Source: a virus (taxonomy: Duplodnaviria > Heunggongvirae > Uroviricota > Caudoviricetes). From it: a DNA stretch of 64,000 nucleotides. This document shows, piece after piece, positions 8,810-42,390 of this stretch; within the stretch, counting starts at the first letter, position 1, and every line of letters starts with the position of its first letter. The DNA lies in IMG/VR virus record IMGVR_UViG_3300044680_000064, positions 9,632 to 73,631 of that record; one strand, written 5' to 3'. The notes below the pieces were generated by a model that saw nothing but the letters and a program-made list of their open reading frames with translations, had not been told where the DNA came from and searched no databases. Made by a program: the position numbers and the translations under genes.

Positions 8810-8858
8810 TGCTTCTCCTTCTCTTGTGCCGGTGCGATCCACGAAGTCCACCGGCACT

Positions 8859-8868
8859 ATTCTACCAC
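8859..8868 (-). promoter_or_regulatory. GTGGTAGAAT variant of the promoter motif (minus strand)
   Basis: About 50 nt upstream of the sigma ATG. Confidence 0.3.
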
Positions 8869-9065
8869 TTGACTTGACCAGCCTGCTGCTTGGCCAATAT
8901 CCTGCCAACGGTTGCTAGTATTTCTCTGCCAAGAATTTTACGGCACTGTTGGCACAAGTCTCCTCGCCATAGCGTTGTTTCGTGCTGAGTCACAGCATAC
9001 ATCGAGATTTTTACCGGCAAGCCCTTCGCCGCTTTAGTCTCGGTGCAGAAATCACAAATCGTCAT
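8862..9065 (-). CDS. small Cys-rich protein (67 aa)
   Basis: CDFC...CQQC pattern. Confidence 0.35.
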   Translation of the reverse strand: MTICDFCTETKAAKGLPVKISMYAVTQHETTLWRGDLCQQCRKILGREILATVGRILAKQQAGQVKW

Positions 9066-9072
9066 GTTATCC

Positions 9073-9321
9073 TCAAATCTGGTAGTCGATCAAAGCCAAT
9101 TCAGCGTCAGTATAGTGCCTAAATAGCGTCGTGTTTCCGCTCCCCTGCGTCGAACAGTGGCACAGGTACTTGCCGCCATGATTTATGGGCTGTTCGCACA
9201 TAAAGAGGCGACCGCCGCAATTCGGGCATTTGAGCGACTCGGGCGCATCGGCTGTCCAGTGTACTACGGTGAAGTTCGTGTGATTTGGCATCATGCTAGA
9301 ATGCTCCACAAGAACTTGCAC
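9073..9321 (-). CDS. zinc-ribbon protein (82 aa)
   Basis: CPNCGG...CHC pattern. Confidence 0.35.
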   Translation of the reverse strand: MQVLVEHSSMMPNHTNFTVVHWTADAPESLKCPNCGGRLFMCEQPINHGGKYLCHCSTQGSGNTTLFRHYTDAELALIDYQI

Positions 9322-9614
9322 GCGACATGCAAAAGCTGGTCGTCTTTGAACGACGTTACGCTCTCACATTTTACGACGTCGATGATAAAGTGGGCCACGA
9401 ATTCGGCAAGACCGAGCCAAATGTTTCCTGTCACGAGAGCCACGGCGCCTGCGTGGATGAGGCAGTGCATCGCCATCAACCACCACCAGGGCATGCCAGG
9501 AAATGCCGTGTGCTTGCTTTTCCCTTTGGCCAAGAAGTCGCCCTGCAACGGAAAGTCGCATAGCGCGTGGGCGACCATGAGGTAGAAGAGCGTGCGAATC
9601 ATGACTTGAGCCAC
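9291..9614 (-). CDS. small integral membrane protein (DUF3307-like?)
   Basis: Hydrophobic segments. The family call from the HALCDFPLQ motif is a memory-based guess. Confidence 0.4.
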   Translation of the reverse strand: MAQVMIRTLFYLMVAHALCDFPLQGDFLAKGKSKHTAFPGMPWWWLMAMHCLIHAGAVALVTGNIWLGLAEFVAHFIIDVVKCESVTSFKDDQLLHVACKFLWSILA

Positions 9615-10729
9615 TTCAAGATGTTCTGTTCAGCATCACGCCACAACCCGCGCAATTGATTCGACGTCGTGGTCAAACCGTACCTCTTTCTGGCCTCGAA
9701 CAATACGGAACTGAATGGCGTTGCGTCTTTGATGCGCAACGCGAATTCCTTCTGGCTGGTCAAGGCCGCATGGTCGATCCACAACTCAAGTAGGTGAGCG
9801 TACTCTGTCTGTATCTTGGCCTTGAGCTTGTAGAACGCCTCAGAGCATTCCGTGAAGTAAACAAGCAATTCCGATTCCTCTCCCGTTAGCACAAACGGAA
9901 GAAGGTGCTTTGGATTGAATAGGTTGTCGCCTTCGCCGCGCATGCGGTGGAGAGCCAGGTAAGTGGGCGACTTGATCTTGAATCGCCGCCCCCACTTATC
10001 GCGGATGACGACGCCCTCGAACGTTGGATCGGTCTTGCTCTCCTCGGCGAGCCACTCCTGAATCTCTTCAATGCTGTTGAACTGGAATTGCTCAACTTGG
10101 TTCAAAAGCGGGCTACCGTGGTCTGGATGAAGCTCGTGAATCGGGATCTCTTCAACACCTCGGAATGTAGATAGCAGGTAAACCTTTGGCTCATCATATT
10201 TGCGGACGATTTTGTTCCACGGCGATACAAACTCGCAAACGTAAGTGCAGGCCGGATTAAGCACATTATTGATATACGCGGCAAAATACTCGAATCCCAT
10301 CGCCTCGCGGATCGCCTCTTCCCACGTCTTGTCGCATCCATTCCCGATTACGCCGTCAGCGAATGTGCCACGGGTGTTGATCCGCCACTGCCCCTTGTAG
10401 TTGTACAGCAGGACGAGCGAGCCATCGACCTTCTCGGTGCACGTGAAATAGCTGAAGTCGAATTCGGCCATCTCGGTCTGGAACTCACCCCAGTTGAAGA
10501 ATCGCGAAAAGCCCTTGGCGACCACGTTCCAAGTATCGAGCTCGAGGACCAAGCCGCGGCACTCTCGCACGATTGGATTGGTCTTCGGGCTGTCTATTTG
10601 GTCGTAGTTCAGGATGACCAGAGGCAAATCTATATGCAACAGGTTGCTGATGCCGAGCTCAGCTTCAAGATCGCCAAGCGTCTTGCCGCTGCGCAGGTAG
10701 AGCTGAACGTTCAAGAGTCTGTCGGTCAT
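9599..10729 (-). CDS. ATP-dependent RNA ligase, T4 Rnl1-like
   Basis: Motif I TEKVDGSLV. ECRGLVLELD and SRFFNWGE resemble T4 Rnl1 ECRGIMFEMD and EKFFNLNE. Confidence 0.7.
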   Translation of the reverse strand: MTDRLLNVQLYLRSGKTLGDLEAELGISNLLHIDLPLVILNYDQIDSPKTNPIVRECRGLVLELDTWNVVAKGFSRFFNWGEFQTEMAEFDFSYFTCTEKVDGSLVLLYNYKGQWRINTRGTFADGVIGNGCDKTWEEAIREAMGFEYFAAYINNVLNPACTYVCEFVSPWNKIVRKYDEPKVYLLSTFRGVEEIPIHELHPDHGSPLLNQVEQFQFNSIEEIQEWLAEESKTDPTFEGVVIRDKWGRRFKIKSPTYLALHRMRGEGDNLFNPKHLLPFVLTGEESELLVYFTECSEAFYKLKAKIQTEYAHLLELWIDHAALTSQKEFALRIKDATPFSSVLFEARKRYGLTTTSNQLRGLWRDAEQNILKWLKS

Positions 10730-11073
10730 TTCTTAGCGTCTCCTTTTGGTCCGGCTGGCTTTGGCATCCAGTGCGTCGGCTCGGGATCGGAGCTGCAATG
10801 CGAATTATTCACGAACCAGACTTTTCGACATCCTTCCGAGATCGGCGAATATCGGCCTATGCCGACTGTTAGGCCGCCATTAAACTTGCTACGATTGATA
10901 AAAACGAGCACCTCAGTCCCATCCTTTGGCGCTTCGGAAATCGGCCTCCACTCCGTCGCGGCGCGGAGAGAGTCGAGTTCGTCTGCCATGTCGCAAAGAA
11001 TACCAGAAGCCACTTTTTCGCCATCTACAAACAATCCCTGGGCACGGCTACGTGCTTCATTCGTGTCGATCAC
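10726..11073 (-). CDS. DUF551-like phage protein
   Basis: WRPISEAPKDGTEVLV motif. Confidence 0.45.
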   Translation of the reverse strand: MIDTNEARSRAQGLFVDGEKVASGILCDMADELDSLRAATEWRPISEAPKDGTEVLVFINRSKFNGGLTVGIGRYSPISEGCRKVWFVNNSHCSSDPEPTHWMPKPAGPKGDAKK

Positions 11074-11272
11074 TTCGCACCTCCGGTGAGTTTGTCAATC
11101 TCGGCCAAAAGGAACCGCCCATCATCCGCGTCAAGGCTACCAAATCTGTGTAAGTGCGTCCCGTCGAGCATTGGGCTTTCGAGTCGTTCGGCGAGGACTT
11201 GACGTATCCGCTCCAGTCGAGATGGGTCGCTGGGCGAATGGCTACGTGAAATTTCGTTTTTTTCGCCCACGT

Positions 11273-11644
11273 TCATTTCTCCTTCAGTTGGCGGACGATA
11301 TTTACTGCTTGTCTGAACGTCAAAGCCTTATGACTCCACCACTTCGCAGCTAGTTCATTTTCGGACACTGACGATGCGTACTCAGCGGCGCGTTTTTCCA
11401 GTGCCTTCGCCGCCTCCTCCAGAACGTCGGCGCGGGCGGCAGTGATTTCCGACAAAACAAATGTGGTTAGGCCAAGCATCGCTCTTTGAATGCCAACCAC
11501 CTCAACCAACTTTCGAAAGTTCTTCCCTTCGCTATCATGCTTGGCTTCATTGACCGCTTTCATGAAGCTGGAAATGGCATCGCCAACTCGTTTTTCCGCA
11601 GTTGTTTCAGGCGTCGGCATTGTGTTGCTCCTTTGTGGCCGCAC
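11273..11644 (-). CDS. hypothetical protein (123 aa)
   Basis: ORF in the minus-strand operon. Confidence 0.4.
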   Translation of the reverse strand: MRPQRSNTMPTPETTAEKRVGDAISSFMKAVNEAKHDSEGKNFRKLVEVVGIQRAMLGLTTFVLSEITAARADVLEEAAKALEKRAAEYASSVSENELAAKWWSHKALTFRQAVNIVRQLKEK

Positions 11645-11964
11645 TCATGCGGGAGAGCAGGCAGTCGGGCGAGTGTTTTGGGGATTCGTCGCGCCACCAT
11701 CTGGACCGGCACAGACAACACTCGCTGCCGATGACTTCGTGTTGATTCGGCCTGGTTTGCATCCAAATATCCTTGATCGCAACCAAGTCGAGAGCTTCCG
11801 CAATCTCCGCATCCAAGCTGACCAGTAAATCGGCGCGGTTGTGACAACTACATTTGCAAAAGTCCGGGAGCATCGCTCCGGGCCAGTGGTTGATTCGCTC
11901 GCTGGGGCGGTGGTGGCAGGAGGGGCAGGTCACGGTGTCTCCGATGCTGGTTTGATGGTGGCGA

Positions 11965-12204
11965 CTACACGCCAGCCCCGCCATCAAGTGTCATTGTCGA
12001 TGATCGAATTATTTCGCCGATCTCTTCGAGATTCTCAAAGAACTTGAAAGAATCGCCGTCGCGAGGATCAGGCTTGTATCCTTCCGGCCACAAGCAAAAA
12101 GAGCCATCGTAAACACCGCCCTGAAGACCTACCTTTTTGCAGTTCTTCAATGCCATCTCTAAGCGGATCGCGGCGCTGCGCTGATTTTGTTTTGGAAGTG
12201 GCAC
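11965..12204 (-). CDS. hypothetical protein (79 aa)
   Basis: ORF immediately downstream of small zinc-ribbon gene A. Confidence 0.3.
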   Translation of the reverse strand: MPLPKQNQRSAAIRLEMALKNCKKVGLQGGVYDGSFCLWPEGYKPDPRDGDSFKFFENLEEIGEIIRSSTMTLDGGAGV

Positions 12205-12207
12205 ACT

Positions 12208-12372
12208 TCACCTACTTTCCGTTTCTGGCTTGTGTTTCCCGCATCCTTCTGACCGGTAAAACTCGCCGTCATCGTACCGTGTCGATCCACACTCGAATTC
12301 GTAGGTGCCAAGCTCCTCGGTCGGCAAATGCTCCTGGAAGGTGCAGGGCGAGGCACAGTGGGGGCAGGTCAT
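12208..12372 (-). CDS. small zinc-ribbon protein, paralog A (54 aa)
   Basis: MTCPHCASPC...FECGS. Lies inside repeat copy 1. Its ATG overlaps the upstream stop (ATGA). Confidence 0.4.
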   Translation of the reverse strand: MTCPHCASPCTFQEHLPTEELGTYEFECGSTRYDDGEFYRSEGCGKHKPETESR

Positions 12373-12374
12373 TT
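12232..12374. repeat. direct repeat copy 1 (~140 bp)
   Basis: About 90% identical to 12771-12912. Confidence 0.8.
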
Positions 12375-12749
12375 AATTGGCTTTCTGAGGTAGGGATACA
12401 TATCCATTGCGGCTATGAACTTTTCCGTAATAGAAGCGTCCATTTCTCTCAGCAACTCGGCCAGTCTTACATCTTGCTGGGCCGATTTGACTGCCCTCTT
12501 TTTCTTCGGATTCAAACTCAGCAATTCGTTCCTTGCCGACTGCATGACATTTAGAACATAAACAAATTTATCAACGCCTTCCTGACTCATGGCGTCTCCT
12601 TTTCTGGCCTGTGTACGCATTCGATAGCGGCGGGTTTTTCTGCCTTCATACCAGCCGCACTCCTCGCAGTTCCACGGCCCATATTGAACACCTACGCCAA
12701 TATCAACTTCATCGCGCCAGCACTGGCCGTTGCATTGCGGGCAATTCAT
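12369..12749 (-). CDS. zinc-ribbon protein (MNCPQCNGQC...)
   Basis: Internal ATG of ORF 12369-12893. The N-terminal extension shown in the ORF track falls in the repeat and is probably not coding. Confidence 0.35.
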   Translation of the reverse strand: MNCPQCNGQCWRDEVDIGVGVQYGPWNCEECGWYEGRKTRRYRMRTQARKGDAMSQEGVDKFVYVLNVMQSARNELLSLNPKKKRAVKSAQQDVRLAELLREMDASITEKFIAAMDMYPYLRKPIK

Positions 12750-12909
12750 CGTCACTTCCTCCGTCCTTTCGTTTCCCACATTCATCCGACTGGTAAAACC
12801 CGCCGTCATCGTACCGTGCCGATCCGCACTCGAATTCGTAGGTGCCCATCTCCTCGGTCGGCAAATGCTCCTGAAAGGTGCAGGGCGAGGCACAGTGGGG
12901 GCAGGTCAT
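12709..12909 (-). CDS. small zinc-ribbon protein, paralog B
   Basis: MTCPHCASPCTFQEHLPTEEMGTYEFECGS, inside repeat copy 2. Confidence 0.4.
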   Translation of the reverse strand: MTCPHCASPCTFQEHLPTEEMGTYEFECGSARYDDGGFYQSDECGKRKDGGSDDELPAMQRPVLAR

Positions 12910-12912
12910 TTC
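12771..12912. repeat. direct repeat copy 2 (~140 bp)
   Basis: Matches 12232-12374. Confidence 0.8.
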
Positions 12913-13072
12913 CACACCCTTCCGCAGAAGTATCCGAAATTAAAACTAGTCAAGTTGTAACTCCGGCTCATTCTGTCAGCTTGGACGCGAATGGTCGCGA
13001 TCTTCTCCTTGCATCGCCGGCATTTCTGCTTGTCGAAGTGCGACGGATATTCAGACTTTCGATGGTTTGTGC

Positions 13073-13465
13073 TCATCCCTTCGTCTCCGTGGATGCGAGA
13101 GCAGCGCGAGCGCTGCGACACATCGGACATGCGACAAGCTGAGGGGTTTGATGATATTCCGTTACTTTGCCAGTCCCGCCGCATTCACGGCATCCGCCGA
13201 TCATTACTGAGAGTGCCGCCCGCAGCTTCTCATTCTCGTCGGTGAGGCGCTTGTGGTTGTTGACAGAATCCCTGATGATCTTGGCATTGTCAGGCGGCAT
13301 GCTTTGCAAGCCAATCTCCCGATCTGCCATATGAGCAATCAAAACACCGTTCTTGTCGCGAACGTCTATTCCGTCCACGAAAACGTCAAGCTGCCACGGT
13401 ATCGGCGCGTGTTTCACTTCTTCCGTCATCGCTTCCTCGCTTTCAGGGGTTCGATATGCCGTCAT
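13073..13465 (-). CDS. hypothetical protein with C-terminal CxxC pairs
   Basis: Internal ATG (MTAYRT) of ORF 13073-13621. Confidence 0.4.
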   Translation of the reverse strand: MTAYRTPESEEAMTEEVKHAPIPWQLDVFVDGIDVRDKNGVLIAHMADREIGLQSMPPDNAKIIRDSVNNHKRLTDENEKLRAALSVMIGGCRECGGTGKVTEYHQTPQLVACPMCRSARAALASTETKG

Positions 13466-13511
13466 TCTACTACCGCGGCTTGACGCCGTAACAGAAATTG
13501 GGTAAAGTTTT

Positions 13512-13751
13512 GTGATGAAAGAGTGTACACTTATCGAAGTCCACACGCCTGGCGCTGAGGTCAGGATTGGCGATCTGGTCGCCGTAGTCTGCGGCATCTC
13601 GATCAAAGGGCCGGCCGACAATCCGCACGTCGCTTACGAAATCGCATGGTGGGATGGCTCGACTCGGCATTCGCAGTGGGTTCAGGAATTCGAGATCGCG
13701 GCAAGTGCAAACGGTCGTAGAATGGCGATTGGATTCATGAAACAGGAGTGA
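13512..13751 (+). CDS. hypothetical protein (79 aa)
   Basis: Sigma-70-like promoter upstream: TTGACG, 17-nt spacer, TAAAGT. Confidence 0.4.
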   Translation: MMKECTLIEVHTPGAEVRIGDLVAVVCGISIKGPADNPHVAYEIAWWDGSTRHSQWVQEFEIAASANGRRMAIGFMKQE

Positions 13752-14035
13752 TTGTGGACGCATCAGAACTGCCGACTGACACCATTACGCACATTGCCGG
13801 GCCACGCATGGACATGGCAGGCAGAATTATCCAACGATGCGTTGTGTGCGGACAAAAACTAGCGGACAGCCAAAACCGTATGGAACTGGCGAATCCTGAT
13901 GGCAACGTGTCGACGTTCCCGACATGGGAGCCTGGCGCTCTTGTTCAAATCGAGTCTGGCAATCCGACCAGATATTCGGTGATCGAGGACGACGGCGGCA
14001 AGATCGGACCTGATTACTGCATAAATTGGGAGTGA
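13748..14035 (+). CDS. hypothetical protein (95 aa)
   Basis: Start overlaps the upstream stop. Confidence 0.35.
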   Translation: MIVDASELPTDTITHIAGPRMDMAGRIIQRCVVCGQKLADSQNRMELANPDGNVSTFPTWEPGALVQIESGNPTRYSVIEDDGGKIGPDYCINWE

Positions 14036-14274
14036 CCATGACCGAGCAAGCAGCTGGGAAGAAAGTTGAAATACCGGATTACATGGTTGACGGTCAGCCA
14101 TTCCACGCATCGCACGTGATCGCATTGGCGCAGCGCCACATGCGCGAAGAGAACTGGTGGCCCGCACCAGGCGATTCGATCCCGCAGTATTTGCGGAAGC
14201 GAGGCCATGTCGTGATCCGTGGCCATGAGCATGCGGCGGCGCTTGCCGGCGAAGAGCCGCGGGAGATCATTTGA
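14026..14274 (+). CDS. hypothetical protein (82 aa)
   Basis: ORF. Confidence 0.35.
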   Translation: MGVTMTEQAAGKKVEIPDYMVDGQPFHASHVIALAQRHMREENWWPAPGDSIPQYLRKRGHVVIRGHEHAAALAGEEPREII

Positions 14275-14510
14275 TACCCGAAGTCTGCCAAAACTGTCAC
14301 TCTTCCAAGCTCTTCAGTACCGTGGACCTGGCGTTTCAGGAAGAATACGGTCTCGAGTCTGATCGTTGGCTGTGCGTCGCCTGCGGCGCCAAGGGAGAGT
14401 CGATCGCCATGAACTTCGCTGCTCGTCACAAACCGCCAGTCAATCCAGCAGCGGTTGCGCTGGCGATCATAATCGCCTTGCTGCTGGCGTGTATCTTGTC
14501 ATCGAATTGA
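14271..14510 (+). CDS. small membrane protein (79 aa)
   Basis: C-terminal hydrophobic helix. Confidence 0.35.
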   Translation: MIPEVCQNCHSSKLFSTVDLAFQEEYGLESDRWLCVACGAKGESIAMNFAARHKPPVNPAAVALAIIIALLLACILSSN

Positions 14511-14561
14511 AAGATTTCCTGTAACAAATTCCTTTCAACTTTGATATCTAGGAGTCGCCGC

Positions 14562-14885
14562 ATGTCCGGTACGTTTGGGGCTTTACGTATAGAGACGTTG
14601 GAGTGTCTGTTCGACACGCTCATCATCAAGCGCGATGCCGCGCCCGACGAGACGCCTGGCGGCGTTCTGCTTCCCGACGACGCGAAGGAAAAGCCGAAGA
14701 CCGGCACCGTCGTTCGCTGTGGGCCTGGGCTGATTCACGAGAAGACCGGGGAGCGCATTCCGATGGGCGTTTCGGTCGGTGATCGAATCTGCTTCAAGCC
14801 ATTCATTGGCCAGACGTTTCAGGACGCGGATGGCAAGTCGTTCGAGATTTCGAAGATCGAGCAGGTGTTGGCAAGAATCGAGTGA
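14562..14885 (+). CDS. groES: co-chaperonin GroES (Cpn10) homolog
   Basis: GroES pattern L..L.DTLIIKR...ETPGGVLLPD.AKEKPKTGTVV..GPG...GDRICF. AGGAG RBS 8 nt upstream of ATG 14562. Confidence 0.7.
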   Translation: MSGTFGALRIETLECLFDTLIIKRDAAPDETPGGVLLPDDAKEKPKTGTVVRCGPGLIHEKTGERIPMGVSVGDRICFKPFIGQTFQDADGKSFEISKIEQVLARIE

Positions 14886-14944
14886 CGCATGGGCTTACGC
14901 AAATCAGCAGATGGCATCCTTGACGATTTGGAAGGGAAAGAGTA

Positions 14945-15172
14945 ATGATTGTCAACGCCTATATCCAGTCCGGCCGCATGGTCGCATCGGCATACACAAA
15001 GCCAGCCATGCGCGAAAAACGCGCCGTTCTCTTATGGCATGACACACGAGATTGTGGCGGCGTCTATGATTTGCTGCAAAGCTGGATGCGTGCAGTCTGC
15101 TTGGAGCAAGGGCCGACCGCGTGCGTCTCATTTCGGATTGAACCACCTCCGCTGATATCAGACAATGGTTGA
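14945..15172 (+). CDS. hypothetical protein (75 aa)
   Basis: ORF. Confidence 0.3.
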   Translation: MIVNAYIQSGRMVASAYTKPAMREKRAVLLWHDTRDCGGVYDLLQSWMRAVCLEQGPTACVSFRIEPPPLISDNG

Positions 15173-15179
15173 GTGCGCG

Positions 15180-15189
15180 GTAGTAGAAT
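15180..15189 (+). promoter_or_regulatory. GTAGTAGAAT variant of the promoter motif
   Basis: 24 nt upstream of ATG 15213. Confidence 0.35.
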
Positions 15190-15212
15190 GACGGAAACGC
15201 AAGGAACAAGAT

Positions 15213-15638
15213 ATGCTTCTCATCAAAGATTTCCCGGTTTTTCGTGCAAACTTCGGCGTGTCGCTTGCTGGCTTTGATCTCAAGGAAATCGTTGGGCGAT
15301 TCCCAGAGCAGGCTCCGGGCTCGGTGCCGGTTGTCACAAAGTGCCATGCGACAATCGGCTTTGTGGATTCGCTGCGATACGCTGATGACGGCTCTGTGCT
15401 GGCCCATTTGCAGATTGAGAATTGCGGCGAGCTATTGGCGACAGTTTTGGCAGGTTGCGCCGATTTCAGCGGCTTTGTTCCAAATCCTGAAGTCAAGATT
15501 CTGCCGAAGGCGCACTTGAGCAAGCTGCAAATCTTGGAAGCTCCAAAACCGATTGGTGGGATGAAAAGCGGGAAGCCGCATCCTCCGAGCCCTAGCGACG
15601 ATTTTACCATGCCAGCGAGAAGTTCTGCAAGCAGTTAA
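15213..15638 (+). CDS. hypothetical protein (141 aa)
   Basis: ORF. Confidence 0.4.
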   Translation: MLLIKDFPVFRANFGVSLAGFDLKEIVGRFPEQAPGSVPVVTKCHATIGFVDSLRYADDGSVLAHLQIENCGELLATVLAGCADFSGFVPNPEVKILPKAHLSKLQILEAPKPIGGMKSGKPHPPSPSDDFTMPARSSASS

Positions 15639-15668
15639 GAGCCGCTATCTGCAAACGGAGATTGCGTA

Positions 15669-15968
15669 ATGCTGAAGGACCGAGGCGACAAAGAAGACCA
15701 CGACAAGGGCGGTCCATACTCCGCCGCTCACGAACTCATTGAGGTCGAGTCGCGGACGGCCGAGACTCGCGACCTCAAGCCAAACGATACCATCCTGCGC
15801 AAGTACGGCTTCGCCATTTACAGCAGGCCCAAGGGCAAGGAACCGACGTGGATCAAGAATGGCAAGCTGTACGATGAGGGCTGCGCTCTTGAAATCTGCG
15901 AACAAATCATGGCCAAGAACCCGGTGAACAAGAGCGACGTCCAGAAGAAAGCCAAAGACGAAGGCTGA
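15669..15968 (+). CDS. hypothetical protein (99 aa)
   Basis: ORF. Confidence 0.4.
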   Translation: MLKDRGDKEDHDKGGPYSAAHELIEVESRTAETRDLKPNDTILRKYGFAIYSRPKGKEPTWIKNGKLYDEGCALEICEQIMAKNPVNKSDVQKKAKDEG

Positions 15969-15991
15969 ATCTCACCTCTTTACAACTCCCC

Positions 15992-16001
15992 GTCGTAGAA
16001 T
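15992..16001 (+). promoter_or_regulatory. GTCGTAGAAT promoter-like motif
   Basis: About 30 nt upstream of ATG 16030, which has a GAGGGGG RBS. Confidence 0.45.
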
Positions 16002-16029
16002 ATTCGCATCACCACCATGAGGGGGTTTC

Positions 16030-16269
16030 ATGGCCAAGTGCGACGGTAAATGCCGATACTCCAAGAGACTGGCCAAGATGATGGCCAGTCGGCAGTCCAA
16101 GATCGCTGGTTGGCGCATCGACTGGTATCGGTGCCCGAATCGCGATCCGGACGGGAGCATTCATTATCACATTGGTTCGCACGATGTCAAACACCCAGTG
16201 TGGGTCGCGTTTGTGATTGCGTTTCGTGAGATTTTATCCGAACCAGAAGAATTGGGGGCCGCGGCATGA
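16030..16269 (+). CDS. hypothetical protein (79 aa)
   Basis: ORF with RBS. Confidence 0.4.
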   Translation: MAKCDGKCRYSKRLAKMMASRQSKIAGWRIDWYRCPNRDPDGSIHYHIGSHDVKHPVWVAFVIAFREILSEPEELGAAA

Positions 16270-16457
16270 TCGGTTGCATGAAGAAACTGAAGATAGTCAT
16301 GGAGCCTGAAAAAGGCAGTTCGATCGTTGATTGTGCGAAAGAGGCCCTTCGTCCGTGCATCGAGCACGACTCGCCGATTGAATTCATGTTTAACGGCACA
16401 CCGTATCGAGTCGATCCGAAGGATTTTCGTGCCTGCATAAAGGAGATTGGCAAGTGA
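16266..16457 (+). CDS. hypothetical protein (63 aa)
   Basis: ORF. Confidence 0.3.
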   Translation: MIGCMKKLKIVMEPEKGSSIVDCAKEALRPCIEHDSPIEFMFNGTPYRVDPKDFRACIKEIGK

Positions 16458-17017
16458 ACATCATTCGCTCGGCTCGCAAGAACCCGCTTCGCAATTACAT
16501 CGTCCCAGGGCTGACGAGCTGGCTTGTCAAGGATCGCGAGAACGACAACGACGTCTGCATTCGCATGTTCGAGATGGAGCGTGAGTTTGTGTGGCAAGTA
16601 ACGCCGCACTCCCATCGGTTCGACTTCGAATGCGTGGTGCTGGAAGGGCAGGTTCTAAACACGATCTACGTCGATCCGGAAGTAGAGATGGCCAAGCATA
16701 GGTTTTACGGAACCGAGCCAGATTTATATCGGCAGACCGACCTCGTTTACCTTGGCAAGCCAGGCCAGTATCGCCTTGGCGCGCAAATCCAAGTGTCGAT
16801 GTGCATCCGCACGTCTCTCTACGAACAGGGACAGACGTATCGTATGGATGCTGACCAGATTCACTCGATTCGCTTTTCCAAGGGGACGCAGGTCTTGTTC
16901 TTCGAAGGACCGATCAAGACGAACAAGAGCGTGTACTTGGAACCGATCGTGAACGGCCAGACCATCGAAACGATGAAGGTCGAGCCGTGGATGTTCCTGA
17001 AGGAAGGTGAGCGATGA
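16454..17017 (+). CDS. cupin-like protein
   Basis: HSHRFDFECVVLEG fits cupin motif 1 (HxH...E...G). Confidence 0.4.
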   Translation: MNIIRSARKNPLRNYIVPGLTSWLVKDRENDNDVCIRMFEMEREFVWQVTPHSHRFDFECVVLEGQVLNTIYVDPEVEMAKHRFYGTEPDLYRQTDLVYLGKPGQYRLGAQIQVSMCIRTSLYEQGQTYRMDADQIHSIRFSKGTQVLFFEGPIKTNKSVYLEPIVNGQTIETMKVEPWMFLKEGER

Positions 17018-17388
17018 GCGACGAAGCAGCCAAAGAAATCGTTGAAATTCCGCTCGATAAGGGGCTCGGTCTTCTGGCGCCAGGAGTCAAGCAGCTGTTC
17101 GGCATTGACCCGAGCAGTTTTGTTGCGCGGTACGAGCGCCAAGCCGATGGCGAGTTGGAGTATCTCGGCATCTTCCAGAATCCGGGCGGCAGCCAGCGTT
17201 GCGACGCGATGACGCCGGAGCAGTTCGAGGCCGCGATGCGGCAGCTTTGCTTTGGAGCAACATCAAGTAAAGCAATAGACAGACCAGCGGCCGACGCCTT
17301 AATGTGCCAGTGCTTAAGAGAGATTGGTTATGGTGCTGGCGTGGAGATATTCGAGAAAGCTCATAAATCTCACCGTGTTGGAGAATGA
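17014..17388 (+). CDS. hypothetical protein (124 aa)
   Basis: ORF. Confidence 0.4.
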   Translation: MSDEAAKEIVEIPLDKGLGLLAPGVKQLFGIDPSSFVARYERQADGELEYLGIFQNPGGSQRCDAMTPEQFEAAMRQLCFGATSSKAIDRPAADALMCQCLREIGYGAGVEIFEKAHKSHRVGE

Positions 17389-17390
17389 CA

Positions 17391-17558
17391 ATGGCTGTCG
17401 AACTGAAATCGCTGAAAGAAGTGGAAGCCGAATTGGCCGCTGATGGCAAGCCGTGGGCGGCGATGCAGGTAAGCATGGCCCGGCAGGAACTGGAATCGCT
17501 TCGTGTCAAGGTTGAAGACCTGGGCAGAAAGCTCGGCATTCGAAGGGGTGACGCATGA
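17391..17558 (+). CDS. small coiled-coil protein (55 aa)
   Basis: ATG to TGA. Below the ORF-track length cutoff. Confidence 0.25.
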   Translation: MAVELKSLKEVEAELAADGKPWAAMQVSMARQELESLRVKVEDLGRKLGIRRGDA

Positions 17559-17627
17559 GCAGGCGAGCTAAACTGTGGATGTATCTGATCTAATTCTGAA
17601 GCGGCCATATCACTACGATCCAGACTG

Positions 17628-18425
17628 ATGATTACACACGAATCATTTCTGCGCACGATCATCGACGAGCCTGATAACGACGGCCCGCGCATGGTCTACT
17701 CCGACTGGCTCGAAGAACAGGGCGATCCGCGTGGCGAGTTCATTCGCATCCAGTGCGAGATCGCACGCACGTTCCCCGGCGTCGCCGCAAATCCGGACTT
17801 TGACGAAAAACAGCTTGTTCAATTCGAGCGTGATGCGCCAGCCGCCGTCAAGCCAATTCCGGGGTGGCAGCGAACGATCGAGATGCGTAAGCGCGAGCAC
17901 GAATTGCTGGCGCTGGTTCCAGAAGAGATTGGCGGCAAGCCAAACAAGAGACAGCTATCCGATCTATGGATTCCACCTTCAATCAAAGACTGCATGACTT
18001 CGCCGGCCGTGACAATGGACGGCATCGAAGTGAATCCAAGTGAAGTCAAGTTCCACCGCGGCTTCATTCGTGACATCGCCTGCTCGTGGGAGTCGTGGCT
18101 GTCACGATACAAGGACATCCTCGCGAGCACGCCGCTGAGGCGGGTGAAGTTCACGACCGAATTGCCGAACCCTTCTTTGTGGACCGACGATAGGTTTGAG
18201 ACTTTCATTGGTTTCCGTGACAGCAACAACAATGGGATTTTTTGTGTCAACGCCAAGGATATGACAGCAGACGCGATGAAAATTCTGCGAGCGCGTCTTG
18301 CGCCGGAGTGGCACTCATTCTGCACGCGACAGATACTCAAGAAGAATTGGCCTGGAATCAAGTTCGAGCTTTATGAGCCACGGCTCCTGCCATTAATATG
18401 CAGATTCAGGATGGCGAGTATCTGA
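17628..18425 (+). CDS. protein with N-terminal TIGR02996-like repeat-companion domain
   Basis: ESFLRTIIDEPDNDGPRMVYSDWLEEQGDPRGEFIRIQ resembles a Gemmata-type domain. The call is from memory. Confidence 0.45.
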   Translation: MITHESFLRTIIDEPDNDGPRMVYSDWLEEQGDPRGEFIRIQCEIARTFPGVAANPDFDEKQLVQFERDAPAAVKPIPGWQRTIEMRKREHELLALVPEEIGGKPNKRQLSDLWIPPSIKDCMTSPAVTMDGIEVNPSEVKFHRGFIRDIACSWESWLSRYKDILASTPLRRVKFTTELPNPSLWTDDRFETFIGFRDSNNNGIFCVNAKDMTADAMKILRARLAPEWHSFCTRQILKKNWPGIKFELYEPRLLPLICRFRMASI

Positions 18426-19006
18426 TCGAATCTGGCGAGTCGTTGCTGGCTGGAGACTATATCACCGGAGATTCGGAACGACGAGTCGTTCGAGCGGAAT
18501 CACGCGGACGCGACGCGGCGATTGGCGTTTGCCTGCAAAACGTCGCAATCAGAGGTATTGCTCGCGTTCGACTGTGGGGCGGCGCTTGGTCGCCAACTAG
18601 TGGGCTTGAGTTTGGTCCGATATTAATTGTGTTTCGCGGCGAAAACTATTCAGAACTTAATCACAACTGGCTGGAAGTACTGATTACGCCGTCCATGCTC
18701 GCCCTCAACGGCCGGAAGTGGAAAGACGCTTCGGTCTCGGCTCAGATATGGCCCGTGGCAGTAGGCCAGCAAGGCGAAATCATTAACGTTGATGCGTCCA
18801 TTCGGCGAAATGGCCGTCGCCAACCGCCCACTGTGCGGATTCAGATTCCGTACACGATCACGTCGTCGTTGCGAGAGAACGAGTATCGGGTGCGCATCGC
18901 CATTCGCTTCACGGATGGGACTGGCGAACAGCTTCCTGACGTGCCGCTACGCGTGTACGATAGACAAAGCGTATACGATGTTCCCGATCCGGAGGCGGAA
19001 GCGTGA
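18398..19006 (+). CDS. hypothetical protein (202 aa)
   Basis: ORF. Confidence 0.4.
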   Translation: MQIQDGEYLIESGESLLAGDYITGDSERRVVRAESRGRDAAIGVCLQNVAIRGIARVRLWGGAWSPTSGLEFGPILIVFRGENYSELNHNWLEVLITPSMLALNGRKWKDASVSAQIWPVAVGQQGEIINVDASIRRNGRRQPPTVRIQIPYTITSSLRENEYRVRIAIRFTDGTGEQLPDVPLRVYDRQSVYDVPDPEAEA

Positions 19007-19032
19007 AGAATACGGGCGTGAATAAGTTCGCG

Positions 19033-19042
19033 GTCGTATAAT
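19033..19042 (+). promoter_or_regulatory. GTCGTATAAT promoter-like motif
   Basis: Upstream of two leader hairpins and the 19153 gene. Confidence 0.45.
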
Positions 19043-19049
19043 GCCGGTG

Positions 19050-19124
19050 TCAGGCGTTTTCAATCCCCTGAGACGCCTGATACATTCTGTCCGGGGTCGG
19101 CTCGAGAGGCAGGCGAGCCGACCC
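19050..19124 (+). promoter_or_regulatory. two tandem leader hairpins (8-bp stem and 11-bp stem)
   Basis: tcaggcgt...acgcctga and gggtcggctcg...cgagccgaccc, followed by a T-rich run. Confidence 0.45.
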
Positions 19125-19152
19125 TACTATGTTTGTCTCCATAGCGAGGACC

Positions 19153-19662
19153 ATGTCGATGAACCCGGAAAAGCGCAAAGAGATCGCGGCACGAGCCGCG
19201 GCAAGTCGCCAACAACCGAAAACACAGGCATCGGGCTGCAAAATCAACGGCCCGGCGTGCGAGGCTGTGGCCAAAATCGTGAAACAGAAGACGCTCGTCA
19301 AGCTGCCGTGCGGGCACGAATTCCCGCCGCAGAACCTGCCCAAGTGCGGTGCCTGCCGGGACAAGGATCGCAAGGCCAAGAACGAGAAGAACAGGGCCAA
19401 GATGGCTGCTAAGCTCGCCGCAGGCCAAGGAAATCCCGAGAAGGACGGCCAGCACAAGCTCAAGGGCCGTCTTCCCGACAAGGCGAAGTATATTTGCGAC
19501 TATGATTCCGAGGCCCAGGAATGGTCTGGGACGCTTTATGTGTCCGGTCAGACGTTCATGGCCAAAGCGAGCGGGTTGTTTCGGCTGGAGAAGCAACTGG
19601 ACGAGCAATACCGTGCTTGGCTTGCCTCCACGAGAGCGGAAATGGCAGAATTGGCGTCATGA
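19153..19662 (+). CDS. basic Cys-containing protein (~170 aa)
   Basis: ATG with a GAGGA RBS. ORF 19129-19662. Confidence 0.4.
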   Translation: MSMNPEKRKEIAARAAASRQQPKTQASGCKINGPACEAVAKIVKQKTLVKLPCGHEFPPQNLPKCGACRDKDRKAKNEKNRAKMAAKLAAGQGNPEKDGQHKLKGRLPDKAKYICDYDSEAQEWSGTLYVSGQTFMAKASGLFRLEKQLDEQYRAWLASTRAEMAELAS

Positions 19663-19702
19663 GAGACCATGCGCAGCTCGGTTGGTACGGAAAGGACCAA
19701 TT

Positions 19703-20035
19703 ATGAAGATCAGCAAGCGATCTTGGCATATTCGCTACTTGCGTTTCTGGGGCGTTGAATTCGAGAAGCTCCCTAAGAGCCTTTGCGGCTACTTCTGGAC
19801 CCTGTGTCTTCATTTGACGATTGTTCCGGCGTTCATGGTGATGACGTCGCCAATTTGGATTCCTATTGTTGCTTTAGGGGCAATGCTTGCTTGGCTCGAA
19901 GAAAAAGAGGCTGCGCGAAAAGCCAAACAAGAACTGATCCCGAAATCGCCGAGAGGGCCAAGGACGCTACTGGGCGCATGGCTGAAGGCCAAGAAAGAAA
20001 AGGTCTGTCCAATTATCGAATGGAGCGATGAGTGA
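19703..20035 (+). CDS. small membrane protein (~110 aa)
   Basis: Internal ATG of ORF 19349-20035 with an AGGA RBS. Two hydrophobic helices. Confidence 0.4.
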   Translation: MKISKRSWHIRYLRFWGVEFEKLPKSLCGYFWTLCLHLTIVPAFMVMTSPIWIPIVALGAMLAWLEEKEAARKAKQELIPKSPRGPRTLLGAWLKAKKEKVCPIIEWSDE

Positions 20036-20370
20036 TGGCCAGTCAGCGTTTGACCGATATGCCAGCCGAGGAGCAGCGAGAGCTAAAAAAGGCTCTCAAA
20101 GAGGCGATCGAAGCGCTGCTTCCGCCAGGCCGAGCGGGCGGCAAGTGCCCATATCTCATGGTCCTCTGCGATTACCCAGCGCCCGATGCCGATCCTTTCA
20201 CGCCGTATACGTGGACGCTGATTGGCAATGTCGTTGACGAGACCGGGCTGGCGATACTTGAAGAAGCGCACGCTCGCTTGAAGCAGCTGCTCAGCATGCA
20301 GGCCATGCAAGCGGCAGACAAAAACGAACCGGAGACGCCGCCATCAGAGCCATCGACGACGAGTTCCTGA
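20032..20370 (+). CDS. hypothetical protein (112 aa)
   Basis: ORF. Confidence 0.4.
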   Translation: MMASQRLTDMPAEEQRELKKALKEAIEALLPPGRAGGKCPYLMVLCDYPAPDADPFTPYTWTLIGNVVDETGLAILEEAHARLKQLLSMQAMQAADKNEPETPPSEPSTTSS

Positions 20371-20408
20371 AGGCATGCCGAACGCCAGGTCCATGCCAAT
20401 ACTGCGGT

Positions 20409-20774
20409 GTGCAGTGTTCAAAGCGCGAGCCGCACCATCTTCGAACTCGCGGGTTCAGGGCTGGAACACGCGTTGATGTATATTGGTGCGTGATGGCGCT
20501 TGGCTGCCACAAGGGCTGGGAATGCAAGTGCCATCGTGGGCGCCATGCCATAAAGCCAAACCCGACGAACCAGCAGATGCTCAAGAAGCAAGCCGAGATT
20601 CTTGGCTGTGTTCCTGACGACATCGAGGTTGCGTTCAACTGTTTTCGTGAGCTCGACAAGCGAGCCGAGCCGGCCGACGTTGAGACGTTCATGTTCGAGT
20701 GGGGCGATACGCTTAGCGACAAGGCGAAGCAGTTTGTGCGCGAGGCGTATGCGGTGGCGAGGAAAGAAAAATGA
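20409..20774 (+). CDS. HNH nuclease (small, terminase-associated type?)
   Basis: HH...GG...C.CH motif (EPHHLRTRG...ECKCHRGRHA). The N-terminal CQYC pair lies upstream of the first canonical start codon. Confidence 0.5.
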   Translation: MQCSKREPHHLRTRGFRAGTRVDVYWCVMALGCHKGWECKCHRGRHAIKPNPTNQQMLKKQAEILGCVPDDIEVAFNCFRELDKRAEPADVETFMFEWGDTLSDKAKQFVREAYAVARKEK

Positions 20775-21076
20775 GCGAGTGGGCACCCAAAACGCCGCCA
20801 GTCGAAGAATGTGGGCTCATTCTTTGCATCGGCGGGCCTCGTGACGGCTTGAGAATCGTATTGAACGATTATTGTGTTTTTCGAGGATACGTTCAGCTTC
20901 TGCCGAGGCCAAGATTCGCATTCGACGATTCCGATCTTACCTACACAACAGCATGGTATCGTCTGGAAAAAATTACCTGCACTGATCGAGTGTTCAATAT
21001 TTTGGTTCATGATGGCATGACGTGCGAGGAAGCATTCATGAGGCTTTTCGACAGATATCCTACCGAGCCACAGTGA
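20771..21076 (+). CDS. hypothetical protein (101 aa)
   Basis: ORF. Confidence 0.35.
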   Translation: MSEWAPKTPPVEECGLILCIGGPRDGLRIVLNDYCVFRGYVQLLPRPRFAFDDSDLTYTTAWYRLEKITCTDRVFNILVHDGMTCEEAFMRLFDRYPTEPQ

Positions 21077-21161
21077 GAGCCCGCGTGCGTAACGCGAGCG
21101 TCGGTCGCGGGCGACGTTCTGGAGAGAATCCGTCGCCCGCCACATTTTTAGGAGAGTATTC

Positions 21162-21959
21162 GTGAGCGACTTCGATATCCGCAAAATCGACTTGGCCAAA
21201 CTCAATAGCCTGACCAAGTACCCGTCGATTCCGACGTACCACGAACTTGGCGACCGCGGCACGCTGAAGGATGTCGTCGGCGTTCAGTTCGACGGCGCGG
21301 CGATCGTAACTGAGAAGGTTGACGGCACCAGCGGCAGAGTCATCTGCTGCCCGGATGGAACAATGATCGTCGGCAGCCGCGAGGAACTTTTGTGGGCTCG
21401 CGGCGATTTGATTGAGAACACGACGCTGCGGATCGTTGAGTCTGTCAAGCCGTACATGGAAAACATCAGGGCGCAGTCGTATCCGAACATCAATAAAATC
21501 GTCGTCCACTTCTTCGAAGTCTATGGAGCCAAGGTGTCGCCTGGGAAAGCGTCGAAGAATTACACGGCGGGCGACGCGACCGGCTGCCGCTTGTTCGACG
21601 TGGCCGTGCTCGTGGATAGTACATGGCAAAAGGTTATGGCGATGGACCGTTCGGAAATATCGCACTGGCGAGAGGGCGGCGGTCAGCATTTCGTGTCGAT
21701 GGAAGTTTTACGCGAGGCCAGCTTCCTGACTTCAATGCCATGCGTCCCAAACCGTGGCTTCTGCACGCCACCAGCAACGATTGACGAAGCCGTCCAGTTG
21801 ATGCGAGAATACTGGGAAAGCAAGTGTCCTCTCGACACGGGCTTATCTGGCCACTGCGAAGGCATCGTCATCCGTTCATCGGATCGCAAGAAGATCGCCA
21901 AGCTCCGTTTCGAGGACTATGAAAAGACTATCAAAGCACGAGAAAGGGTCTCGAAGTGA
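21162..21959 (+). CDS. ATP-dependent RNA ligase, T4 Rnl2-like
   Basis: KYPSIPTYHEL resembles Rnl2 KYSSLENHY. Motif I is EKVDGTS (Rnl2 has EKIHGTN). Motif EGIVIRS. Confidence 0.65.
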   Translation: MSDFDIRKIDLAKLNSLTKYPSIPTYHELGDRGTLKDVVGVQFDGAAIVTEKVDGTSGRVICCPDGTMIVGSREELLWARGDLIENTTLRIVESVKPYMENIRAQSYPNINKIVVHFFEVYGAKVSPGKASKNYTAGDATGCRLFDVAVLVDSTWQKVMAMDRSEISHWREGGGQHFVSMEVLREASFLTSMPCVPNRGFCTPPATIDEAVQLMREYWESKCPLDTGLSGHCEGIVIRSSDRKKIAKLRFEDYEKTIKARERVSK

Positions 21960-22156
21960 GCCTGGTCGATACCAACGCAAGGTGCCACTGCGGCGCCAAA
22001 GCAACGACAATCGTGATCGAAACCGATGCTCGGAGCGAGCGAGTTCATACTTCGCATTACTGTTGGCGGCATGATCCGAGCGGCGAGTATCAGCTGCGAC
22101 AACGGATAGCCAACGAAATTAAACTGAAACAAGAACAACACGACCCAAGGTGGTGA
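21956..22156 (+). CDS. small Cys/His protein (66 aa)
   Basis: CHCG...HYCWRH pattern. Confidence 0.3.
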   Translation: MSLVDTNARCHCGAKATTIVIETDARSERVHTSHYCWRHDPSGEYQLRQRIANEIKLKQEQHDPRW

Positions 22157-22216: not shown

Positions 22217-22486
22217 GTGAGCAAGAACATCGGCGCGATGATGTCGGCTCCGCGTGCGAATCGTCCGTCGAACAACAGGATCCGCGAGCAGCTGTTGATG
22301 ATGGTCAAGATGAACTTCGAAAACAAAGGCGAAGTTCCGTACATGAGCATCGACATTGACTGGGACGTTGTTCGCGATCTGCTTCACCCGAGCGTGGCGT
22401 CGCCCAGGCGTCCGATCAAGCGTAAGGCGAAGCGTCTCTCTGCGGGATGGGGGAATTTACTCACACCAAACGGATTCCGAAAGTAG
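22217..22486 (+). CDS. hypothetical basic protein (89 aa)
   Basis: ORF. Confidence 0.3.
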   Translation: MSKNIGAMMSAPRANRPSNNRIREQLLMMVKMNFENKGEVPYMSIDIDWDVVRDLLHPSVASPRRPIKRKAKRLSAGWGNLLTPNGFRK

Positions 22487-22693
22487 GCCAGGCATGGGCA
22501 TTATTCGATCAGCCAAGCGGGAAATGAAGAAGCGCCAAAAGGCATCATTTCTATTCCGCGGCACAGCCGAGTTCCGGGCCAAGGTACGCCGAGCGCGGAC
22601 ATCGAAGCAGAGCCGAAACGACATGACGATTGTGGTTGGTGGACAAAAGCCCACCGCCTGATGCTACAATGCGGGGAGAAAGGAATTTCCCCT

Positions 22694-23077
22694 ATGACAG
22701 CACTTCTCAAGCTCATTTTCTTGACACTTTGTCTGCCCATTCTCGACCAGGGTCCGACGCCAGCGGTTCAATCCGACTCTGACCGATTCAGGATCACCGC
22801 AGTCGAAGCCAAGCGCAATTACGAATTCGCTCTGGAGCACTATAATTGGTGCCAACAAAACGTGCCGAATACGTTATGGGAGCGGCAAGCGCAGTATTGC
22901 TATCAAGCGTGGGATGCGTTGGACAATGTCAAGAGATTCTGTTTTGAAGTGCACGAAGAGCGTATGATTCCAGTAAACTTGGAGAGGCTGCGAGACTTGC
23001 TCGGTCAGGACGCATGGGCTATCGGTCGCATGCCGCCGCCTGCTCCCTATTGGTACTTCCAAGAGAAATCTCGCTGA
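22694..23077 (+). CDS. secreted protein (signal peptide)
   Basis: MTALLKLIFLTLCLPILDQG signal-like N-terminus. ORF 22661-23077. Confidence 0.4.
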   Translation: MTALLKLIFLTLCLPILDQGPTPAVQSDSDRFRITAVEAKRNYEFALEHYNWCQQNVPNTLWERQAQYCYQAWDALDNVKRFCFEVHEERMIPVNLERLRDLLGQDAWAIGRMPPPAPYWYFQEKSR

Positions 23078-26702: not shown

Positions 26703-26745
26703 CATGACACGATCCTCAAAGTGGATACTGATCGTAAAACACAAG

Positions 26746-42383: not shown

Positions 42384-42390
42384 GAAAACC

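Follow-up and report, generated by a model that had tools for sequence, protein, structure and literature searches.

Two ATP-dependent RNA ligases of different architecture are encoded in the DNA of an uncultured phage, and we consider it fairly probable (roughly 60%) that they reseal tRNA or other RNA after its cleavage by ribonucleases of the host during infection, with a 376-aa Rnl1-type enzyme acting on loop breaks and a compact 265-aa enzyme acting on duplex nicks. The phage has a genome of about 104 kb. The stretch analysed as a whole, hereafter the window, measures 64 kb, and together with two flanks the sequence covered amounts to 79.4 kb of the genome. Two Logan contigs that belong to this phage supply the flanks and add about 15 kb (10 kb on the right, 5.4 kb on the left). 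Scanning metagenome and viral contigs for exact patterns yielded no further sequence of this genome, and a homolog search started from the truncated 962-aa gene did not return its own protein among the matches. The genome is of a lytic type and also carries tRNA genes. A search for a cultured relative via the portal protein gave a single weak match. The phage has no known cultured relative, and there are hints that it infects a planctomycete host.

Both ligase ORFs were recovered at the positions and with the lengths already given in a preliminary description of this DNA, which had seen in them an RNA repair arsenal. The two RNA ligases that this term implies are present, but no healing step was found, and the genes lie in divergent blocks on opposite strands, 10.4 kb apart and with no module in common.

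Features of the window discussed in the text (positions are those of the window)
Feature	Position	Strand	Basis and remarks
DUF3307 membrane protein	9291..9614	-	DUF3307 in Pfam sweep; PHROG 2470 'membrane protein', 1.2e-27
Rnl1-family ATP-dependent RNA ligase	9599..10729	-	376 aa; Pfam, PHROG, PDB, alignment, AF2/Foldseek
Compact single-domain RNA ligase	21162..21959	+	265 aa, GTG start; Rnl2/Rnl5/REL1-like NTase core, no flanking domain
Weak PTH2-like (peptidyl-tRNA hydrolase 2) ORF	26370..26696	-	108 aa; same strand as the tRNA pair, from which it lies 49 nt downstream
tRNA-like gene, 6-nt anticodon loop UUUUAA	26745..26815	-	Rfam tRNA 58.8 bits; no anticodon assigned by ARAGORN
tRNA, anticodon CUA (amber suppressor)	26930..27004	-	ARAGORN; Rfam tRNA 63.1 bits

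Two RNA ligases of different architecture

The family assignments, catalytic motifs and domain architecture of both ligases could be established. For the 376-aa protein, the proposed match to T4 Rnl1 extends over the full length in sequence and fold, with the catalytic residues kept. It scored 71.2 bits against Pfam PF09511 (cutoff 28.3) and reached 1.4e-47 against PHROG 562. T4 Rnl1 was its top PDB match both by sequence (2c5u, E 1.6e-13) and by fold, as the Foldseek search with the AF2 model (pLDDT 89.4) aligned 380 columns to the 375-residue T4 Rnl1 at E 8.9e-18. With a global TM-score of only 0.48-0.50, this match is one of architecture and not of rigid superposition. The model consists of an NTase domain (residues ~1-254), in which K100 is the lysine of motif I, and a C-terminal domain (~255-375) that is helical throughout. 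In the alignment with T4 Rnl1, E56, R58, F77, N79, K100, D102, G103, E166, E238, G239, K251 and K253 are invariant; R58/K100/E166/E238/G239/K251/K253 are presumably the counterparts of R54/K99/E159/E227/G228/K240/K242 in the T4 enzyme. Against NCBIfam TIGR02308, the T4 RnlA equivalog, the protein scored 69.5 bits and thus stayed below the cutoff of 242.25; by the NCBI criterion it is a member of the Rnl1 family but no functional equivalog of T4 RnlA. At its 3' end, the Rnl1 gene overlaps with the DUF3307 ORF (in the gene calls of an identical public contig, 4 nt into the ligase stop), and the two genes are therefore probably co-transcribed; a functional link between the DUF3307 protein and the ligase would be speculative.

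The 265-aa protein had been described as an Rnl2. Its Rnl2/Rnl5-like NTase core agrees with this, but the domain that defines Rnl2 is missing, and the protein belongs to a separate, compact bacterial family. It falls into the Pfam RNA ligase family PF09414 and carries motifs I (EK52VDG), III (E119), IIIa (F145-D146), IV (E233-G-I-V-I-R238) and V (K247-L-R249). Since the protein ends 16 residues past motif V, with one helix in place of the signature C-terminal domain, it is an RNA ligase but not a canonical Rnl2. Correspondingly, only positions 4-219 of the 341 in the PHROG 548 profile are covered. The AF2 model is confident, and its fold is closest to NgrRnl (Rnl5), T4 Rnl2 and TbREL1. The defining feature of Rnl5, known from Naegleria gruberi and Deinococcus radiodurans, is an OB-fold domain at the N-terminus (PMC7261155), which is absent here as well, with only about 45 residues ahead of motif I. 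Neither a C-terminal OB-fold nor a top similarity to structures of DNA ligases or capping enzymes was found, and both proteins fall into RNA ligase families. The motifs quoted earlier for the two proteins could be located (ECRG, FFNWGE and TEKVDGSL in the 376-aa, KYPSIPTYHEL, EKVDGTS and EGIVIR in the 265-aa protein), apart from one spacing: the segment ECRGLVLELD reads ECRG...E.D and not ECRG..E.D.

The compact ligase is part of a widespread family of single-domain bacterial proteins of about 257 aa, with more than 1,200 homologs and 324 loci in GTDB. The family is overwhelmingly bacterial and chromosomal and was found in 6 of 50,697 GenBank phage records; proteins from Gemmataceae and Pirellulales are among the best relatives of the phage enzyme. 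The six NTase motifs are invariant in 35 homologs, all of which end at an equal position. There is no solved structure for the family, and a profile search of PDB sequences with it returned nothing significant. At the genome loci the genes are mostly solo and without a conserved partner, with Ro60 adjoining in 6 of 80 cases and RlaP in 1 of 80. Several lineages nevertheless have, independently of one another, a relative that adjoins RNA-repair genes. The neighbour is Ro60 in two IMG/VR viral contigs, one metagenome-assembled genome and six genomes of Dactylosporangium, and in Anatilimnocola there are two RlaP genes. In Streptomyces phage JustBecause, a Ro-like RNA-binding protein directly follows the compact ligase, which is flanked by tRNA genes. 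In the phage studied here, no Ro60 (TROVE) or RlaP (PF10127) gene adjoins the ligase, as judged by tblastn in window and flanks and by Pfam in the window. An RlaP-sized protein formed by amber read-through (22217..22486 plus 22661..23077) was discarded, since the linker is not coding-like and a separate lipoprotein-like signal is present in the second ORF. A C-domain acting in trans, or another conserved partner, was likewise not found, with no neighbour homolog beside any of 112 related loci. Clustering of the neighbours gave only lineage-specific Micromonosporaceae synteny and spurious high-GC ORFs.

Sealing, healing and the tRNA genes

Both ligases are expected to follow the standard pathway in three steps: ATP would adenylylate the lysine of motif I, which is K100 of the Rnl1-type and K52 of the compact enzyme, the AMP would then move to the RNA 5'-phosphate, and attack by the 3'-OH would seal the break. 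The Rnl1-type enzyme would act on breaks in loops and the compact enzyme on duplex nicks, as a member of the Rnl2/Rnl5/REL1 structural clade, in which the characterised enzymes seal nicked duplex RNA. It is the helical C-domain that targets T4 Rnl1 to broken anticodon loops of tRNA. In general, Rnl1 and Rnl4 seal breaks in stem-loops, and Rnl2 and Rnl5 seal duplex nicks (PMC4408790). Phages with combinations of Rnl1, Rnl2 and RtcB have been described as using RNA repair as a counter-defence (PMC7824862). We infer the activity, the substrates and an anti-defence role of both enzymes, and by analogy with T4 a role in tRNA repair would be reasonable.

Searches of the window by Pfam, PHROG, tblastn, regular expressions and Walker A motifs yielded no Pnk, 2H phosphoesterase (sought as HxT/S pairs), RtcB, Hen1, Tpt1, RlaP or Ro60, and a complete T4-style pathway is therefore hypothetical. 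Local tblastn searches in window and flanks also gave no match to T4 Pnk at E<=1 and none to Ro60 or RlaP better than E 0.1. The earlier remark that no P-loop kinase is visible agrees with the predicted genes, of which only DnaB and a BCS1-like AAA ATPase have a Walker A motif. The two end-healing candidates put forward instead did not hold up. The calcineurin-like phosphoesterase (40587..41798) matched the exonuclease PHROG 284 at 5.4e-28 and stayed below the Metallophos_2 cutoff (20.5 bits versus 27); it is better explained as an SbcD/Mre11-like DNA exonuclease. The HAD phosphatase noted at 42391 (ORF 42259..42954) is better explained as an NT5C-type 5'(3')-deoxyribonucleotidase (Pfam NT5C 29.2 bits, PHROG 2643 1.7e-18, PDB 2jao 6e-7). 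For the healing of RNA ends neither protein is credible, be it as a 3'-phosphatase or as a cyclic phosphodiesterase. A Pfam search with the small ORFs concatenated by GS linkers returned artefactual Serglycin matches only. In the proposed mechanism, the ends at the breaks would be 5'-P and 3'-OH from the start, the kind left by metal-dependent nucleases, or else the host or a gene within the remaining ~20-25 kb would provide the healing.

The preliminary description had further regarded the phage as heavily invested in tRNA integrity. Its CUA suppressor tRNA and its Lys-like tRNA are present, the latter with an abnormal loop that resembles the loop of tRNA-Lys(UUU) minus one base. The PTH2-like ORF named alongside them is a weak candidate, as it scored 16.6 bits against Pfam PTH2 (E 0.0093, cutoff 23; profile positions 3-100 of 115) and had no match among PDB sequences or in NCBIfam.

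Other readings and comparison with known systems

The compact ligase allows for several other readings. Its mostly chromosomal, bacterial family, the planctomycete proteins among its closest relatives and the fact that Ro60 and RlaP are the sole recurrent neighbours would fit an accessory gene from a planctomycete-like host that serves general RNA quality control or processing, such as Ro/Y-RNA-like sealing or circularising of structured RNAs or the modification of transcripts of the host or the phage, and not tRNA repair. However, the window holds no Ro60, RlaP or Y-RNA-like partner, and the Ro60 link concerns a minority of loci only, so that we regard this as unlikely. Still less probable appears a function as a nick sealer in replication or repair, working on RNA-3'-OH/DNA-5'-P junctions or substituting for a DNA ligase. 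It would agree with the position of the gene in an early-type block upstream of the DnaB and replication initiator genes, with the lack of any DNA ligase family match in the Pfam and PHROG scans of the window, and with the fact that nick sealing by Rnl2 and Rnl5 requires RNA only in the strand with the 3'-OH (PMC4408790).

For the Rnl1-type protein, a structural or assembly role instead of RNA repair has to be considered. Tail-fibre attachment is the second activity of T4 gp63, PHROG 562 is annotated as 'RNA ligase and tail fiber protein attachment catalyst', and no Pnk partner came up in the Walker A scan of the window or by tblastn in window and flanks. Yet the ligase catalytic residues are invariant in 30 homologs and T4 Rnl1, a pattern that speaks for catalysis being under selection; the gene lies among small early-type genes adjoining a sigma factor and outside the tail module; and its score far below the T4 RnlA equivalog cutoff makes a transfer of the second gp63 function unsafe. 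We therefore see little chance that the protein is kept mainly for such a role, and prefer the resealing of cut RNA by both ligases.

A bolder version of the resealing model is tentative and, in our view, rather doubtful. In it, a seventh class of ATP-dependent RNA ligase architecture would be seen in the 265-aa protein, a naturally free-standing NTase without a flanking specificity module, which would complete the three steps of ligation by itself or with help in trans and would join an Rnl1 in a Pnk-independent resealing of the 5'-P/3'-OH breaks made by metal-dependent anticodon nucleases. Such an enzyme would match the 'ancestral stand-alone NTase' that Shuman and colleagues have reportedly postulated. 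Engineered deletion of the C-domain from T4 Rnl2, or of the N-domain from NgrRnl, cripples full nick sealing (PMC4408790), and the one-domain enzyme may hence need a partner or act on another substrate. The compact ligase is the one moderately novel element of our finding. As it lacks every flanking domain that defines the six characterised RNA ligase families, a natural single-domain enzyme of this kind would show how the NTase core alone recognises and adenylylates RNA ends, and it could serve as a small practical ligase in molecular biology.

In the classic defence against host anticodon nucleases, RNA ligases of phages supply the sealing half. Phages with several types of ligase have already been catalogued, and the phage described here adds one more example. 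As in the T4 Pnkp-Rnl1 pathway directed against the anticodon nuclease PrrC, an Rnl1-type sealing enzyme occurs in a phage with tRNA genes. In T4, pseT lies ~1.4 kb from rnlA, whereas here no adjacent or otherwise detectable Pnk, nor any other healing enzyme, was found in the sequence covered. The Rnl1-type ligase itself resembles T4 Rnl1 (RnlA, gp63; 374 aa) in size and in the combination of an NTase core with an all-helical C-terminal domain, but the identity is only ~22-27%, and the low TM-score points to differences in the domain orientation or in details of the C-domain. In comparison with T4 Rnl2 and trypanosome REL1, the compact ligase lacks the C-terminal domain (~250-334 in T4 Rnl2), has a motif V of the form K-x-R instead of K-x-K and contains a helical insert at ~152-190. 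NgrRnl and DraRnl (Rnl5) possess an OB domain that the compact ligase does not, and 188 of the 340 NgrRnl residues align to it. Its phage-borne relatives in Streptomyces phages JustBecause and Kela and in Nodularia phages vB_NspS-kac65 belong to the same family and share 36-38.5% identity over 93-94% of the protein. In JustBecause the partner is Ro-like, whereas here, with no Ro homolog in the window, the compact ligase is paired with an Rnl1, and a pairing of Rnl1 with an Rnl2-type ligase has been described before in T4-like and jumbo phages.

Two RNA ligases in a tailed-phage genome

The window comes from the genome of a tailed phage (source record size 103,868 bp). Its gene products include a portal of the Mu type, a small terminase and a terminase-like protein with an intein, along with a DnaB helicase, GroES and a sigma-70 factor of the phage's own. 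A portal search returned no cultured relative of the phage. Both ligase ORFs agreed exactly in coordinates and length with the preliminary description, and all ligase motifs listed there were found, one of its patterns being wrong by a single spacing residue. ORF A and ORF B are located 10.4 kb apart in divergent blocks (minus strand, 8024 to 13621; plus strand, 13748 to about 23077) and therefore do not belong to one operon or module. The BCS1-type AAA ATPase and the SPFH/Band-7 protein are odd cargo for a phage, and two very large proteins are encoded in the structural region. The 141-bp direct repeat (92% identity) covers the 5' end of each of two ORFs on the minus strand, which have the N-terminus MPRPAP.RSICRPR in common. 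In the public Logan assembly, this phage is split into two contigs near the repeat.

Features of the window, by position
Feature	Position	Strand	Remarks
Phage sigma-70 factor	8024..8908
ORF A	9599..10729	-	376 aa
141-bp direct repeat, one copy	12234..12374
141-bp direct repeat, other copy	12771..12911
GroES homolog	14541..14885
TIGR02996 protein	17628..18425	+	265 aa; domain at N-terminus (68 bits)
ORF B	21162..21959	+	265 aa
Cys- and His-rich ORF	21956..22156	+	66 aa; possibly a zinc ribbon
BCS1-type AAA ATPase	23019..24422	-	full-length (BCS1_N, AAA and lid domains)
tRNA-like gene	26745..26815	-	Rfam 58.8 bits; abnormal 6-nt loop UUUUAA
Amber-suppressor tRNA	26930..27004	-	anticodon CUA
SPFH/Band-7 protein	31371..32636	+
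Terminase-large-subunit-like protein	32685..35492	+	935 aa; split by Hint/intein domain at about residues 400-690
Exonuclease (PHROG 284)	40587..41798
NT5C 5'(3')-deoxyribonucleotidase	42259..42954
Very large protein	47506..51282	+	1258 aa; Mu-type portal is the first 450 residues
Very large protein	51355..55605	+	1416 aa; glycine-zipper matches only

ORF A genuinely belongs to the Rnl1 family of ligases; its proposed match to T4 Rnl1 was supported by Pfam, PHROG, PDB, alignment and fold. The protein scored 71.2 bits on Pfam PF09511 (cutoff 28.3), covered nearly the entire profile of PHROG 562 (1.4e-47) and, with residues 52-314, matched T4 Rnl1 in the PDB (E 1.6e-13). In an alignment of 29 homologs together with T4 Rnl1, the invariant positions were E56 and R58, F77 and N79, K100, D102 and G103 (motif I), E166 (motif III), E238 and G239 (motif IV) and K251 and K253 (motif V), which we take to be the positions essential in T4 Rnl1. 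In the AlphaFold2 model (pLDDT 89.4), a nucleotidyltransferase (NTase) core precedes a domain made up entirely of helices (residues 255-375). The top PDB match in Foldseek was T4 Rnl1 (380 columns, E 8.9e-18), followed by fungal Trl1 and Rnl3 ligases, with DNA ligases ranking far lower. ORF A is, however, no equivalog of T4 RnlA, as it reached 69.5 bits on TIGR02308, under the cutoff of 242. The Rnl1-type family of ORF A occurs in 1,419 GenBank phage records. The nearest relatives share 50-58% identity, and the two of their contexts inspected, with ArdC, CsrA and sigma-factor genes close by, look like metagenomic phage or mobile-element DNA.

A compact ligase family without an accessory domain

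ORF B is an RNA ligase as well, though no canonical Rnl2. It passed Pfam PF09414 with 36.1 bits (cutoff 27) and covered just the N-terminal two-thirds of the Rnl2-type PHROG 548. The database holds 1,217 homologs, typically of about 257 aa and 42-49% identical to ORF B, which reside mainly in bacterial chromosomes (Actinomycetes, Cyanobacteria, Planctomycetes, Myxococcota and others). A 35-sequence alignment displayed the invariant ligase motifs EK52xDG, S72-R73, E119, F145-D146, E233-G-x-V-x-R238 and K247-x-R249, a conserved family-specific N-terminal element, LNSxTKYPSIxTYH, and a C-terminus about 16 residues past motif V in every member.

The comparison values for ORF B were highest with NgrRnl (Rnl5; 16.7) and the N-domain of T4 Rnl2 (16.4), followed by TbREL1 (14.9), Rnl3 (13.3), Trl1 (11.5), T4 Rnl1 (10.7), DNA ligases (about 10-11) and capping enzymes (7-9), and hhalign connected the family to residues 28-224 of T4 Rnl2 (E 3.2e-5). 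The refuting alternative of the preliminary description therefore does not hold for either protein: neither ORF A nor ORF B is placed with DNA ligases or with capping enzymes. The RNA ligase assignment stands, but the label "Rnl2" is wrong on one defining point. Families of RNA ligases are defined by the domain joined to the NTase core (PMC7261155; PMC4408790), and the C-domain of Rnl2 is absent from ORF B, which also lacks the N-terminal OB domain of Rnl5. Neither a solved structure within the family (profile search) nor an NCBIfam model for it was detected, and the family appears to be uncharacterised structurally and biochemically. The GTG start of the 66-aa ORF overlaps the stop of the compact ligase (GTGA), and the two may be translationally coupled; this ORF has no homolog at any related ligase locus.

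In some genomes the compact ligase is found next to genes of RNA metabolism. Downstream of the homolog in Anatilimnocola lie two genes for RlaP, an enzyme adding nucleotides to the RNA 3' end and proposed to act upstream of 5'-P ligases (PMC12776372). In one metagenome-assembled genome (L005, 8246..11539), a Ro60 gene precedes the ligase, and a conserved 246-aa protein without Pfam family comes after it. In Streptomyces phage JustBecause (L014, 5977..8413), a Ro-like protein, homologous to Ro60, comes after the ligase and tRNA genes flank the locus. Ro60 also adjoins the ligase in six Dactylosporangium genomes and two IMG/VR contigs. These neighbours support a role of the family in RNA metabolism. 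They are exceptional: among the best 80 GTDB loci, Ro60 occurred within 6 kb in six and RlaP in one, and no neighbour is conserved between phyla. In cultured phages the family is rare (6 of 50,697 records). Neither Ro60 nor RlaP was found in the present phage within the 79 kb read, none of ORF B's neighbours recurs beside any of its relatives, and a Ro-type RNA quality-control role is the less likely explanation. The best relatives of the compact ligase include proteins of Gemmataceae and Pirellulales; along with the TIGR02996 protein, whose model name (rpt_mate_G_obs, NCBIfam) suggests a definition in Gemmata obscuriglobus, they hint at a planctomycete host.

End healing, tRNA genes and possible substrates

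Two enzymes had been put forward as end-healers, and both proposals proved wrong. The presumed calcineurin-like phosphoesterase (40587) scored under the Pfam threshold for Metallophos_2 and matched the exonuclease PHROG 284 (5.4e-28); we read it as an SbcD/Mre11-type DNA enzyme. The presumed HAD phosphatase (42391) is the NT5C deoxyribonucleotidase. Another 57 ORFs scanned with Pfam contained no Pnk, RtcB, Hen1, Tpt1, 2H or RlaP, Walker A motifs occurred solely in the BCS1-like AAA ATPase and DnaB, and tblastn with T4 Pnk gave no match at E<=1 in the window and 15.4 kb of flanking sequence, taken from identical public contigs. Absence of a healing enzyme from the genome is likely rather than proven: the sequence searched was 79 kb of about 104 kb, all but some 20-25 kb downstream of the tail genes.

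The suggested investment in tRNA integrity is backed by links that are weak or circumstantial. Both tRNA genes are real; the PTH2-like ORF adjoining them remained sub-threshold (16.6 bits vs 23). ARAGORN assigned no anticodon to the tRNA-like gene, whose loop is of the tRNA-Lys(UUU) type minus one nucleotide; it could be a decoy, a nuclease-resistant variant or non-functional. TAG is the stop of 11 of the 86 predicted genes, including those of the BCS1-like ATPase and the terminase-like protein, so there is no sign of TAG recoding across the genome.

Both ligases would follow the classic pathway from lysyl-AMP through AppRNA to the phosphodiester bond. In the simplest model without a healing enzyme, the breaks that they reseal would carry 5'-P and 3'-OH ends from the outset. 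Such ends would be left by metal-dependent PIN- or Toprim-type nucleases. Alternatively, the host might supply healing. Judged by architecture and the published division of labour, ORF A would seal breaks in stem-loops, e.g. in tRNA anticodon loops, and ORF B nicks in duplexes with RNA as the 3'-OH strand (PMC4408790). For a one-domain enzyme the relevant comparison is with shortened forms of known ligases: truncated T4 Rnl2 does not perform RNA adenylylation (step 2), and neither T4 Rnl2 nor NgrRnl, when truncated by engineering, achieves full nick sealing efficiently (PMC4408790). Compared with this resealing of RNA breaks, sealing of replication nicks or, for ORF A, a gp63-like role in assembly is less likely.

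The core of the preliminary description, that both enzymes are RNA ligases, was correct, and the combination of an Rnl1 and an Rnl2-like ligase in one phage is an already established pattern (PMC7824862). The sole element of real, moderate novelty is the compact ligase family with its lack of accessory domains.
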